Source: Armatimonadota bacterium
GTDB lineage: Bacteria; Vulcanimicrobiota; JACPDS01; JBDRKI01
Length of the DNA: 13,056 nucleotides
Assembly (NCBI GenBank): GCA_043814095.1
Contig: JBDRKI010000090.1
Coordinates: 1-13,056, forward strand
Direction: 5' to 3'
This document shows positions 331 to 6,300 of this stretch, piece after piece. The notes under the pieces were generated by a model, which was not told the origin of the DNA, did not search any database, and worked only from the letters and a program-made list of their open reading frames with translations. Position numbers and translations under genes: made by a program. Each line of letters starts with the position of its first letter. The first letter of the stretch is position 1.

Positions 331-3300
331 TGCCTATAATTCCTCTATTTAGAAATTCATTATAAACAGCTACTGATAATATATCTGACTCTGCCTCAAT
401 TTTTAAAAAGTCAACTATGTCGAACCTGTTTTTGTATCCGCTCATAAAACATTTGAAAGATTCTGAATTTTTATGCGTTTTTCCTATTACCATAAGCAGT
501 TCCATGGCGTTCATTTTTTCACGGTTAATTAAATTTACATATGACACTTTCTTGTCGTAATGCAGTAAAAATTTTAAAGTATTTAATTCTTCAGGGGAAA
601 GAGAATCTATTTCTCTGCCTGCTAAAAAATGAATACTGTAAAGAGTATCTTTGAACGAACTTGTTTTACGAGCAGACACAAGCCTTTTAAGGGTAGTCAT
701 ATCTAAATCTAACGCGGCATTTTCTGAATTCAACTCCAATAAAATCTCCTGTGCCGCTTTCCGGCAGTCAAATATAATCTCCATACTCAGCTGTGTCTTA
801 ATTATTTCGAATTCCTGTGCCGTAATTTTACCGGATTTATATAAAATTTCGTTTCTGTAGAATTCCAGAAAAACGGCTTTTAAATTATCTCTGGAAAAAC
901 CGAAAGCTTCAAATGAAATTATACTGCCTATAAAGCTTTCAACCATATTATGAGTCGCGATATATTTATGGACAAATTCTGTGGTTCCATACTCTTTTAA
1001 TAAGCCGGACCATGCGGAAGCATCTAATACAAGCTTTGAAGAATCATAAGGCCTGCTCATTCTTTCCGCAGCATACTGCTCAAGAATTTCTTCTTTTGCT
1101 TCGGGAGAAGCCGCGCCGCCGCGTCTTATTGCCTCGCATGTTAACGGGAAATCTTCTTCAAACACTTCGGCTTCAGCGGCTTTTACAAGCCTGCCCCACC
1201 TGTATTCAAGCGACTCTTGCGGGACTCGCGCCTTTTGAATCCCTTCTTCCAGTTTTGCTTTACTAATGCTCAACTTGTTGCTTTTCGCGGGTTCATCTTT
1301 CCCCGTATTTGTATGTTTTTCAATTTCGTCAACCATCCGCTTAACGGCGTCTCTTAAAAGAGGCTCCCCGCCGCCCAGCCCGCCCTTTATAAAGCTCAAT
1401 AATTCAAGCGGCAAATTTCCTTCCATATAATAACCGGCGACCAGCTCGGCTATAATTTCCTCGTAAAATAACGGCGTGCCTACTCCGTCTTTATCCGCGA
1501 ATAAAATAATTCTGTAAGCCTTTTTGTACGGCTCTTCTAAGTTTTCAAACGCCTCATTATCGCCGCGCAGCACCTTAAATATATTGTAAATAATATCATG
1601 CTTCAGCCGATTGAAATTATTTTTATCATTTAAAAATTCAAAACTTACAACAATAAGTTTCTCCCCTGCCGCGTAGCATACGGGCTTATCCATCGGCTCC
1701 GCATAAGCCATTACCAATATATTTTTATCTCTGACAAATTCCAGCAGAGGCTGCGGTATATCTTTAAGCAGAATTTTCAGCTTTTGGCGCGTCGCTCTTT
1801 TATTTAATCCGGATACCAGATTGTCCGTAAAGATATCCTCTCGGGCAGAAGGGCCGCATCCTTGATTAAGCAGTATGGCCCGCAGCTCAATATAAAGATC
1901 CTGCACCTTTGCTTCCAGCATCCCGACATTACAGGACATCCCGAATATCAGATCGTCTTCACAGCCCAGATATTCTTTCGCTGTTTTTTCCGTTAAATCA
2001 ACTACTTTTTGCAGTGTCTCCCTATCCGCCTCATCCCCGGTTAAGCCGCTGTCAGCCAATTCAAATTCAACCTGTCTTCTAACTTTTTCTATGTAATCTT
2101 CGGAGTGTATTTTTCTTCTGAATTTTGCAACCAGAGAATGTCTGTCTGTATAAATGTCGGCAAGCTTATCCGATATTAAATCCACTTTTTCTTCCATGGT
2201 TTTACCGGATGTAAGTATTTTAATAAATCCGGCTTTTTCAGCTTCTGAAATAAAATCCGACTCTATTTTAACGGCAGAGGAAGTATTTTGAGATGCGCCT
2301 TTTTTGCCCGTGCCGGCGGCTTTATCCGCGGGAAACATATCATCTTTTGCCCTGGCAAAACCGGCGGCGTTTCCCGGAGGACGGGGGTTTGCCGGATCGA
2401 CGGGGATATCCGTATTAACTTCCATGCCGCGCTCGGTTACCGCGGACGGCTTATCTGCGCCGTAATTCGAGCCTATGCCGGTACGGACTAGCTTAACACG
2501 CGGTTCCGGAGGCGCGGGCTTATCAAAACAGGGCACAATCACTTCTTCTTCGGTAACAGGTCCGTATATATGCCATAAATACTTAGAAGGATCAAGGTAT
2601 CTCTGACAGTGTCTGTTTATATCTTCCACGGTTATACTTTTTGCCAGAGCTATATACTCGCTGTCTTTCATGTATTCAAAGCCCATCAGGTCATTATTCC
2701 CCAGGGTAGTATTTCTATACAGAGGATTTTCTATGGATGCGGCTTCTTCCATTACAATCCCGCTTTTGATAAGTTCCAGGTCTTTTTCCGTTATGCCGTT
2801 CTTCCTTATATCTTCCATTTCCTCAATAATCAGCTTGATAACCCTATTGACTTTTTCCTTTAACATTGAAGTGGATATTCTCAGGCAGGCCGAGTTTTTA
2901 AACAGTTTTGACATCTCAAAAACTTCATAAACAAGACCCGAATCACTCCTTAACCTCTTAAAAAGCCTTTTTTGAAAAATCGATTTAAACATCCTATCTT
3001 TAAATAACTCAATCATGGGACTGTCCTGCGGCAAGCTCTGCGCCGCGATATCCAGGTAAACTTTCTCGCACTCTTTATAAACTACAACTTTACGGGGCTC
3101 TACAGTAGCCGTATTCTCCGCTAAAGGCTTTGCTTTGCCCTTTAATTTTCCGAATTCAACTTCCGCCATTTTTACAAAATCTTCATGCGCTACATCCCCG
3201 AAACATGCAAGTATAATCCTGCCGGGCGGAAAATTCTCTTTGGTATACTGTTTTAAACTTTCGGAAGTAATATTACTTACCGAGCTTTCATCGCCTAAAC

Positions 3301-6300
3301 CGGATTCTCCTAAAGGCGAATCTTTAAAAACCGCCCTGCCGAATTCAAGATCACTCTCTAACCCGGGATGATCTTTAATAGCTTTGAGCTTAAACAATAC
3401 TGTCTGCTTCATCATTTCAACTTCATTTGGATCAAACTTTTTACGGAAGAAGCACTCATATAAAAGTTTTAACGCCGGTTCAAGATCTTCTTTTAAGACC
3501 TCTACAGTAAAATGCATATATTCTTTACCCGCATCAGCCGTGGCGTCCGAAAGCATTCTTCTTGTCATGCCGACCAGTTGTTTTGTATCATAATTCTCCG
3601 TAGCCCTGGAACCGGTCATGGCGGTAAAAATACGGGAAATACCTTTTAGAGTTTCAGATTCGTATGCAGTGCCCATATTAACATATATACCCAGTGAGAC
3701 AAATTTTGTGCCGGAATGCGTCTCCGTTATAACTTTAACTCCGTTAGGGAGCTCGGTTTTCGCATAAGGAATATCAATAACCTCCTCAGTACATACCGCC
3801 TGTTCGGCCGGGCGTACGGATGCTGTTTCGGGGACTTTAGCTTTGCTCACTGGAGCCGGCCTAACCGGGCAAGCGGCTTCAAGCAAAGACGGGGCTTCGG
3901 GCTTAAAACCGGGTATTACCACTTCATTCTCCCTTAACGGTCCGTAAACAGACCATACATATTTATTGGGATTAAGGTATGAACTGGCGGCTTCAAGAAC
4001 ATCTTCTTTCGTTATGCCTTCCAGCATTTTTATAACCTCATCCGGACTTCTGTATTCTGTACCCGTAAGCTCCGTTAATAAAATATCCTCCATCCTGCTA
4101 AAGGGTTTTTCTAAATCTTTCAGTGTCATTTTCTTAAAACTCGTTTTACAGGTATCAAATTCCTCATCGGTTAAACCGTTTTCCATTATATCTTTCATTT
4201 CATCACAGATTACTTCAATGGCTCTGTTAAGTGTTTCTCTCGGGGTTTCCATAGAAAATACAAGTAGATTGGCGGATCCCAAACTAATCGGGTTAATATC
4301 GATATTATGAGCAAGATTCTCATCCGTTCTTAATCTGTGTATAAGCCTTATGCGTATAATAGACATAAAAAGTTGGTTTTTTAACATTCCTTCCTTACTC
4401 ATATCCGATAAAGGAATGCCTGTTGTTAATTGTAAATATACATCTTCACATTCTTTATAAACAACTGATTTCTTAGGAGTTATATAAAGGGTTTCTTCCG
4501 GTTTGGAAGCTGATCTGCCTTTTAATGAGCCGAACTTGCTGCCGGCAAGGCGTACAAGATCAGAATGATCCAGATTGCCTGCCGCTAAAACCGTTATTTT
4601 ATCGGGAGTGTATTGCGTCTCTTCAAAGTTTTTTAAATCCTGCGGTGTAATTGCTTTCACTGTTTCTTCTGTGCCTGCGAGGGGCTCCGCTAAGTTGCCG
4701 CCTTCAAAAACGGCTTTTAACATCTCCTGTAACGCTTTATCTGAATTGCTGTCGTTATACATTTCTATTTCGGCGAGAATCGGACCGCGCTCCCTCTCAA
4801 CGGCTTCCGGAGTTATTTTTTTCTCAAGCAGCATCTCTTCAAGCAGCTCAAGCGCTTTACCTAGATTTTCTTTCTTCACTTTCATGTAATAAAATGTATG
4901 ATCAAATGATGTCTGCGCGTTATGCAGAACAGATATTTTCTCAGTATCATAATTTAAGGTTGCTTCGGTATGTTTACCGGTATCTTTAAATGCCATATGC
5001 TCGAGAAAATGCGATATCCCGCGCTGATGCGATGCTTCATGGATAGATCCGACTTTAACAAGCACTCCCACGGAAACAAAATTAGTAACGGGATTAGACT
5101 CGGTAATAACTTTTACACCGTTAGGGAGAACCGTTTCGTTATAGACGGAGGCAGGGGCGTTAATATTTGAGGTCTGCTCCGCTTTCACGGGAAAAGTTTC
5201 ACTTACCTTCCCTGTCCCGTGCCCTGTGCCTGCATCCATAGACATTACAGACGGTACAGGCATAGGTATACCCTGCGGTGTTACAGGCTTCGGGGCAAGA
5301 CCCAGCCCGCCGGCAAATCTACTTGCCGCCTCATTTATTTTATCCATAACCTTATTAAGAGAAAACGGACCTAATCTGGTTGACGGTGTACCGCCGTTAG
5401 GAGGGCCGCCCCCTGAAGGAAGAGATGGAGGAGGTCCGCCGGGATCGGTATTTATATCAGTAGGCTCTGTAATTTCATCAATAAATTTTTCTAGGTTTCT
5501 GCGCAGCTGCGGATTTTTTAATCCGTTTCTATTCCCATAATAAGCTACAAAAATGCTTCTAATTGTAATTTCCAGCATTTCTTTAAACTCGGCATCTCCG
5601 ACCTCGCACCCCTCTTTATGCATAATTTTAAAATACTCCACCATAAAATCATCACAGGAAGAAATTTTGCCTTCATTACAGTAAGAAGTATATAAATCAG
5701 TGATAATCCGCTTTAAATTTATGTATGCCTGTGATACTCTGTCTGAGCCCGTGTACATATCCATAAGCGTATCAAAAACTTCAAGAGATTGTTCCGTGAG
5801 TGCCGGTGGATACTTCAAAGCTCTTGTTCTAAGCAGTATATCCTTATAATACTCCCCTACCGTTCTTCTGACAGAATCAAGTTCGTCCAGATCTTTTCTA
5901 TATACTTTTAAAACCGGCTTGCCGTCTCTTAGCTCTACCTTGTCTTCCATTAAGTCGTAACTTTTTTCTATAAGCCCCCTGGCTTCTTTATAATATCCCT
6001 GAAGATGTTTAACAGGATCACCGGGCATCCTGTTATTTTTGTACGGATTTAATTTCTGCGGAATGGAAGCTTTTAAGCCGGCGAAACCACCACCCGGTAA
6101 TTCTTTTTTCCCGGAAGACGCAGCCTTATTGCCCAGAAGGCCGTCTATAAAGCTGTCCATTATTTTATATACTTCTTTATCTGTCAGTCCTTTTGCATAA
6201 TAATCCTTAAACAGGAACATTATGCACTGATCCATCATCTGAGATACGGTTTCCGCATCTTCCAATACTGAAAAATACCTGAATAATGAGGGGCTGGCTG

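Follow-up and report, generated by a model that had tools for sequence, protein, structure and literature searches.

We analysed a 13,056-nucleotide stretch of DNA (hereafter the window), which is one entire contig, C90, of the 2.5-Mb, 129-contig genome of an Armatimonadota bacterium (GenBank assembly GCA_043814095.1, contig JBDRKI010000090.1). The window carries a giant open frame on the minus strand (11668..2), which holds 3,889 codons in the window, is open at the window edge and continues on a second contig of the assembly, C30. Embedded in the encoded giant protein is a tandem of two M16 peptidase units, and the catalytic motifs, predicted fold and origin of this tandem are the subject of this report. 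All features given below with window coordinates lie on the minus strand.

The giant gene and its embedded M16 tandem

The giant gene likely starts with a GTG codon at position 11656, five bases behind the sequence GGGGGAG, and the database copy of the protein (P0003, 3,885 amino acids) agrees with this start. Window bases 1-141 are identical to the end of C30, and no stop interrupts the frame across all 3,628 bases of that contig, so that the giant protein comprises at least 5,051 amino acids. In the 3,889 amino acids of the window, only two Pfam families scored above their cut-offs, each in two stretches: Peptidase_M16 (PF00675; E 3.1e-53, 180.1 bits versus a cut-off of 22.3) and Peptidase_M16_C (PF05193; E 1.8e-44, 152.2 bits versus a cut-off of 23).

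Residues 2174-3050 consist of two complete M16 plus M16_C units arranged head-to-tail. Unit 1 (residues 2174-2590, 417 amino acids; 3899..5149) is the putative zinc-binding half. Unit 2 (residues 2631-3050, 420 amino acids; 2519..3778) has the same fold, lacks the zinc site and bears the R/Y pair. The two are joined by a linker of about 40 residues (residues 2591-2630; 3779..3898), presumably a hinge or tether, whose predicted local distance difference test score (pLDDT) is below 50 in the structural model described below. Pro/Gly/Ser-rich stretches border the module on both sides, namely a Pro/Gly/Ser-rich linker ahead of it, probably disordered (residues 2065-2173; 5150..5476), and a Pro-rich linker behind it (residues 3051-3130; 2279..2518). 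Aligned end to end, the two units are identical at 146 of 426 positions (34%; E 5e-80), far above chance. An earlier reading of the window from its letters alone (the sequence-only reading) had described an M16B-like tandem embedded in a giant protein, with two closely collinear units; the Pfam matches and the whole-length alignment bear out both points.

The embedding itself might be an artefact, whereby mis-assembly or run-through of separate genes would make an ordinary M16 pair only seem embedded. The assembly is indeed fragmented (129 contigs), and its giant genes lie on short contigs broken at repeats. However, the frame is uninterrupted over 5,051 codons at about 40% G+C and spans both flanks of the module, and in-frame Pro/Gly-rich linkers join the module to its neighbours, as they do elsewhere in the giant protein. 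Moreover, several other giant frames with paralogous modules occur in the same genome, and the units do not duplicate any other M16 gene of the genome; these genes have ordinary lengths and do not exceed 29% identity to them. We regard an artefact of this kind as extremely improbable.

Searches for the embedded tandem elsewhere returned the giant protein itself as the sole match among 5,271 candidate proteins of 2,138-6,806 amino acids. When 1.84 billion representative sequences were searched with HMMER, none of the other 149 matches listed was longer than 940 amino acids. The best matches in 30 other genomes of the phylum were single-unit genes with 32% identity; one match in these genomes (G013:C4) lies in a 1,935-amino-acid open frame with an internal TAA. 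Among the 10 of 28 papers listed by a literature search on M16 within giant proteins or polymorphic toxins, none appeared relevant by title or abstract. The location of an M16 chamber inside so large a protein (at least 5,051 residues) is new; the protein, representative and 30-genome searches gave no second case.

Catalytic motifs and predicted fold

The catalytic sites were read by alignment to solved M16B chains. Unit 1 has all five zinc and catalytic residues. Its HFLEH motif (residues 2220-2224; 4997..5011), predicted to bind zinc and to act in catalysis, contains H2220, E2223 and H2224, and the segment ERERGPILAE (4769..4798) contains an E-x6-E pair formed by E2293 (4790-4792), at the position of the helper Glu, and E2300 (4769-4771), at that of the third zinc ligand. 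The R/Y site of unit 1 is degenerate and reads RTDENLAH (residues 2447-2454; 4307..4330), in which R2447 is kept and the Tyr has become H2454. Unit 2 shows the reciprocal pattern. RIFTA (residues 2679-2683; 3620..3634) stands in place of HXXEH, with all three motif residues lost, and both members of the E-x6-E pair are replaced, by M and K, in VEMMKQTVLFK (3389..3421); the five zinc and catalytic columns of unit 2 are thus occupied by R, T, A, M and K. The R/Y pair is intact, with R2907 and Y2914 retained in RSDSGLVY (residues 2907-2914; 2927..2950). HFLEH and its distal Glu, RTDENLAH, RIFTA and RSDSGLVY had been picked out by the sequence-only reading, and all of them lie where it had placed them in the minus-strand frame 11668..2; the loss of both Glu residues of the E-x6-E pair from unit 2 comes in addition.

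That reading had also proposed a reciprocal division of the motifs between the units, and related tandem proteins generally show the same split. We aligned the embedded tandem with 59 stand-alone tandem M16 proteins, picked from 120 listed (query coverage of at least 91%). In this alignment (A1), 14 columns are invariant in 60/60 sequences, including H51, E54, H55 and E131 in the first unit and R738 and Y745 in the second, which correspond to H2220, E2223, H2224, E2300, R2907 and Y2914 of the giant protein. We also tabulated the motifs in the 80 rows used for the first phylogenetic tree (tree 1, see below). The HXXEH residues and both Glu were present in 22/22 single-unit proteins, as was the R/Y pair (22/22). 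The N-halves of stand-alone tandems carry the HXXEH residues and both Glu in 22/22 cases and the R/Y pair in 1/22, and the C-halves carry the HXXEH residues in 0/22 and the R/Y pair in 22/22. In the same notation, unit 1 reads HEH, EE and R-H, and unit 2 reads RTA, MK and R-Y.

In the available part of PMC12731061, HXXEH is assigned to domain 1 of M16 enzymes, and the active site is described as being completed on closure by the R/Y pair of domain 4. Of these features of active M16 members, the domain 1 HXXEH motif and Glu pair are found in unit 1 and the domain 4 R/Y pair in unit 2. Judged by its motifs, the embedded tandem follows the split rule of known single-chain and heterodimeric M16 enzymes.

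An AlphaFold2 model of residues 2170-3060, for which the input was an alignment of stand-alone tandem M16 proteins, reached a pLDDT of 88.8 and a predicted template modelling (pTM) score of 0.88, with disorder only in the inter-unit linker (model residues 425-458) and at both ends. Foldseek comparison of the whole model gave template modelling (TM) scores of 0.81 to 9ldy_A, a closed single-chain M16 protein, and of 0.74 to the closed, substrate-free IDE structure 2jg4_A (0.67-0.76 across IDE structures). The scores were 0.55-0.56 to FusC and 0.41 to the open PqqL structure 6ofs. The model supports a closed clamshell in which domain 1 would face domain 4. Modelling had been suggested by the sequence-only reading as a check of its proposal, and in this confident closed model the two units do form a clamshell.

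The units, of 417 and 420 amino acids, have M16B chains as their best PDB matches (3hdi, 1hr6_B, 3eoq, 7v4y). PDB entry 3HDI, the solved example of the homodimeric single-unit M16B proteins of the Bacillus halodurans BHP/YmxG type, is the best solved-structure sequence match of both units (E 3.9e-45 and 2.3e-29). It is also the best fold match; VIA-align superposed unit 2 on 3hdi_A with a Z score of 43.6 and a root-mean-square deviation of 2.0 Å over 409 residues.

Other M16 enzymes share parts of this organization. The M16A and M16C enzymes (pitrilysin, IDE, PreP) form a four-domain closed clamshell with HXXEH in domain 1 and R/Y in domain 4, but the embedded tandem shows no sequence membership in these groups (NCBIfam pitrilysin model, 70.8 versus a cut-off of 765), and the M16C linker is a helical hairpin, according to the available part of PMC12731061, whereas about 40 disordered residues are predicted here. 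Heterodimeric M16B enzymes (MPP alpha/beta, TTHA1264/1265, Sph2681/2682, AlbE/AlbF) likewise pair an active half, which binds zinc, with an inactive one needed to complete the chamber (PMC12731061 and PMC11266112, in the parts available), but these are two chains from two genes, whereas the embedded pair is one fused chain that most likely had a duplication of its own. In addition, MPP lacks the R/Y pair, as far as the available part of PMC12731061 goes, whereas the pair is present here.

Origin of the two units

The closest relative of each unit is the other unit. The highest identity to any other of the 78 tree rows is 30% for unit 1 and 25% for unit 2. Among the matches listed when unit 1 was searched with HMMER against the 1.84 billion representatives, the best besides itself was an 881-amino-acid tandem (E 4.6e-71, 26% identity), and single-unit proteins reached 27-32% identity. 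Unit 2 is at most 25% identical to outside proteins.

Phylogenetic analysis placed the two units together. In tree 1 (80 rows; LG+C20 with posterior mean site frequencies (PMSF), quick search), they are sisters with a Shimodaira-Hasegawa-like approximate likelihood ratio (SH-aLRT) support of 98, within a 31-row clade of single-unit proteins that have all motifs. In the same tree, the 22 stand-alone tandems are split into two old, separate clades, one of N-halves and one of C-halves, and the genome's own M16 gene pair on contig C54 groups with these clades. A second tree (tree 2; 49-row subset, LG+F+G4) recovered the sister pair with a support of 99.4 and an ultrafast bootstrap (UFBoot) value of 100, on a stem of 0.54, and the clade of N- plus C-halves with 98.9/100. 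Leaving out one unit did not draw the other into the clade formed by N- and C-halves (SH-aLRT 94.5 and 94.8). The sister relation is further backed by shared derived characters, since the Gly-rich LGGG motif ahead of the R/Y site is absent from both units and both have the same shortened loop. Both units also share VVYKECE.VYL and the tail YGP..E.EV..P.F..PAP. The local duplication put forward by the sequence-only reading is thus upheld in two trees.

In both trees the units lie on the BHP side of the split, and their size of about 420 amino acids is also that of BHP. However, BHP-type proteins are separate chains, each with HXXEH, both Glu and R/Y (the 22/22 single-unit rows above), whereas here two copies are fused, have lost motifs in a complementary manner and form an internal module of a much larger protein. 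From the sequence comparisons, the tandem would most likely be an independent repeat of the transition from a homodimer to a fused pseudo-heterodimer, starting from a single-unit gene of BHP type.

FusC, PqqL and the uncharacterised "zinc protease" tandems of 820-960 amino acids (6B05, 6OFS, 9LDY) resemble the embedded tandem in that two M16B-like units are linked, the leading one bearing HXXEH and the trailing one R/Y; FusC and PqqL are classed as linker-containing M16B enzymes in the available part of PMC12731061. They differ in sequence (21-26% identity among the matches listed), and their N- and C-halves constitute the two old clades, which exclude both units of the giant protein and therefore point to a separate origin.

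Alternatively, an already differentiated pair, either a PqqL/FusC-type single chain or an active/inactive two-gene operon, may have been captured and fused into the giant gene; the sequence-only reading had named a captured PqqL/YmfF-YmfH-like pair as its alternative to duplication. The same motif split is common in stand-alone tandems (183 proteins at E <= 0.001 of 7,999 candidates scored), and the C54 pair shows that the genome itself possesses such genes. The approximately unbiased (AU) test separates two versions of this constraint. Forcing unit 1 with the N-halves and unit 2 with the C-halves cost 75.1 log-likelihood units (lnL) and was rejected (p 0.003), whereas forcing only unit 2 with the inactive C-halves (delta lnL 29.4, p 0.163) was not. 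The sister placement of the units in two trees, the leave-one-out trees and the derived indels and tails that the units share all argue against capture, and the best tandem relative is only 23-26% identical among the matches listed. The NCBIfam scores are likewise far under their cut-offs: unit 1 scored 91 against YfmH (NF047421, cut-off 250) and 69.8 against YfmF (NF047422, cut-off 285), unit 2 scored 66.8 against YfmF and 26.8 against YfmH with the same cut-offs, and PqqF reached 52.2 against a cut-off of 320. We consider a captured pair very unlikely.

On these scores, membership in the YfmF/YfmH, pitrilysin and PqqF equivalogs was rejected. Common descent with the PqqL/FusC-type stand-alone tandems was also dropped, the units being sisters outside both half clades and the double constraint being rejected, with the caveat that the constraint on unit 2 alone was not.

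Proposed activity and the giant host protein

We think it likely, on the motifs and the model, that residues 2174-3050 constitute, in one chain, a complete zinc peptidase of M16 (insulinase) fold and about 100 kDa, predicted to be active, which would have arisen by its own tandem duplication. In this enzyme, the N-domain of unit 1 would bind zinc via H2220, H2224 and E2300, with E2223 acting as the general base. Clamshell closure of the two units, tethered by the disordered linker of about 40 residues, would bring R2907 and Y2914 from the C-domain of unit 2 to the zinc site and thereby complete it. The mirror-image second site would be dead on both sides, as the N-domain of unit 2 lacks the zinc ligands and the C-domain of unit 1 has His for Tyr. 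A single-unit, homodimer-type M16B gene with all motifs would have been duplicated in tandem, followed by reciprocal loss, independently of the old split into active and inactive halves and repeating it. We infer catalysis by the module. The chamber would likely accept unfolded peptides or flexible segments as substrates, and these could be free peptides or the giant protein's own Pro/Gly-rich linkers. The sequence-only reading had suggested that the module could process the host polyprotein or act on peptides in a target cell, and both remain hypothetical roles.

Several points weigh against the preferred reading. The module was seen only in the giant protein, and no orthologue was found on which purifying selection could be tested. 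Its peptide-cutting activity is a prediction from sequence and model, and the modelled clamshell leans on homologous tandems and on M16 structures learned by AlphaFold2; it is a homology-level argument and no independent test. Placement of unit 2 alone with the inactive C-halves survived the AU test. The branches of the two units in tree 1 are long (1.0 and 1.55 changes per site), and the Gly-rich motif that is otherwise conserved next to the R/Y site is missing from both, which could mean relaxed constraint.

The M16 fold may accordingly have been kept without cutting, as a peptide-binding or scaffold module, that is, a pseudo-peptidase comparable to the bc1 complex core proteins. Such use of M16 halves is documented (PMC11266112, in the part available), and the long branches, the lost Gly-rich motif and the lack of orthologues showing constraint fit it. 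However, unit 1 retains its five zinc and catalytic residues and unit 2 its R/Y pair, including the six columns that are invariant in 60/60 tandems, and a pure scaffold needs none of them. We judge a pseudo-peptidase unlikely and prefer a working peptidase.

The presumed working mode of the embedded tandem is not new, since active/inactive heterodimers are well known, as are M16B clamshells built from a single chain, such as FusC, PqqL and many unnamed "zinc proteases". Its apparent separate origin, by a duplication of its own, is new. The partial decay is new as well, in that the Arg of the unit 1 R/Y pair (R2447) persists. M16 enzymes are a standard illustration of enzymes that depend on an inactive copy of themselves. 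To our knowledge, the transition from a symmetric two-site homodimer to an asymmetric fused one-site machine has so far been inferred only from very old splits. The same outcome, with the zinc site in the first copy and R/Y in the second, seems to have recurred here, which would offer a natural replicate for subfunctionalisation after duplication, and the Arg retained in unit 1 may be a trace of an intermediate stage.

Giant multi-enzyme proteins have been reported from Omnitrophota ("Archaeovorins" and others; bioRxiv 10.1101/2023.11.21.568195 and 10.64898/2026.06.07.730766, in the parts available), in which enzyme modules are likewise strung along a very long chain. According to the same parts of these preprints, HEAT_2 and HATPase_c are among the commonest domains of the Omnitrophota giants, and peptidase modules (C39, S8) are proposed to cut the giant protein. 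HATPase_c and HEAT modules also occur in other giant frames of the present genome; beyond these, the resemblance is confined to the general beads-on-a-string layout. Unlike the Omnitrophota giants, the giant protein described here has no transmembrane-like segment, and Pfam found no dockerin/TSP3, C39 or SecA-like domain in the window's 3,889 amino acids or in the C30 extension. The terms "M16" and "insulinase" are absent from the main texts of three giant-protein papers, including both Omnitrophota preprints, although supplementary domain tables may list M16.

The M16 chamber is a concrete candidate for an activity that might process bacterial giant multi-enzyme proteins. A bolder version is that it would serve as the built-in processing protease of a lineage-specific family of bacterial "polyproteins" and would, in addition, represent a second and independent case in which a homodimer gave rise to a fused active/inactive M16 clamshell. 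On this account, the mid-chain chamber would cut the protein's own Pro/Gly-rich linkers, and perhaps those of paralogues, and would free enzyme modules (the zincin, LMW phosphatase and others described below). We rate this combined proposal as distinctly unlikely.

FusC and PqqL are free periplasmic enzymes (PMC12731061, in the part available), whereas the module described here lies inside a protein without a hydrophobic segment or signal-like start: across the 5,051 amino acids, no 19-residue stretch has a mean Kyte-Doolittle hydropathy of at least 1.5, and the N-terminus is not signal-like. Membrane anchoring or Sec export of the giant protein was dropped on these grounds; the protein may still use a non-classical route.

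The N-terminal region of the giant protein is common to paralogues in the same genome, and the N-terminal domain shared by this giant family was found in 1/151 genomes searched in the phylum, the source genome itself. Neither the giant protein nor the upstream open reading frame described below has a PHROGs family. The best ESM Atlas score for residues 1-770 was 0.83, under the meaningful level; a likeness of this region to PT-TG and MafB was discarded, as the corresponding ESM Atlas rows reached only 0.80-0.81 and provide no evidence. A PDB sequence search with residues 3057-3889 gave 0 matches at E <= 1. The motif [RK].E[LM]R occurs twice in the giant protein, in neither case at a module border, and R[SA]E.R does not occur, so that neither motif punctuates the protein. 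Residues 821-2075 (window about 5444-9208) comprise two helical super-repeats of about 700 residues each without a family match; their internal matches are 24-40% identical (for example, residues 959-1140 versus 1671-1845 and residues 1363-1496 versus 1939-2074), and an ITEP.DIN motif closes each super-repeat and is followed by a Gly/Pro-rich stretch.

Further giant frames, most of which run off their contigs, lie on C32 (at least 5,533 amino acids), C86 (at least 4,900), C106 (at least 3,711), C78, C63, C61 and C56. They belong to a lineage-specific family and bear arrays of signalling-type domains. The C86 frame contains five HATPase_c domains and HisKA, that on C106 three LMWPc domains, and that on C32 three HATPase_c domains with HEAT and LMWPc. 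No M16 module was present in the giant frames on C32, C86, C106, C78, C63 and C61.

Near the end of the window, a zincin-like module spans the C90/C30 junction, with HEFAH at window 83-97 (residues 3858-3862); some 90 residues further along, on C30, follows an EEFFADCF-type motif, which presumably resembles the third zinc-ligand motif of M34 peptidases. The part of this module on C30 matches Pfam ATLF weakly (E 9.3e-4) and does not reach the cut-off. When bases 1641-3626 of C30 are translated, a low-molecular-weight phosphotyrosine phosphatase domain (Pfam LMWPc; E 9.4e-6, 26.3 bits versus a cut-off of 23.2) with a CIGNEVRS P-loop lies at about residues 407-494, within the continuation of the giant protein.

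Upstream of the giant gene lies an open reading frame with an open 5' end (P0002; window 11796-13055), for which Pfam and PHROGs gave no match and the PDB 0 matches at E <= 1. It contains HEIGH (12762-12776) and DELFASFF (12630-12653), a module of the same kind as the zincin-like module, and is 29-31% identical to parts of the C-terminal region of the giant protein. This frame probably represents the end of a further giant gene arranged in tandem. The gap of 127 bases ahead of the giant gene contains four direct repeats in an 11-bp phase at window 11727-11770 (TTAACAATTTA, GTAACAATTTG, GCAATATTCTG, GCAATATATGT), and a promoter-like TTAACA-18-AATATT site overlaps them.

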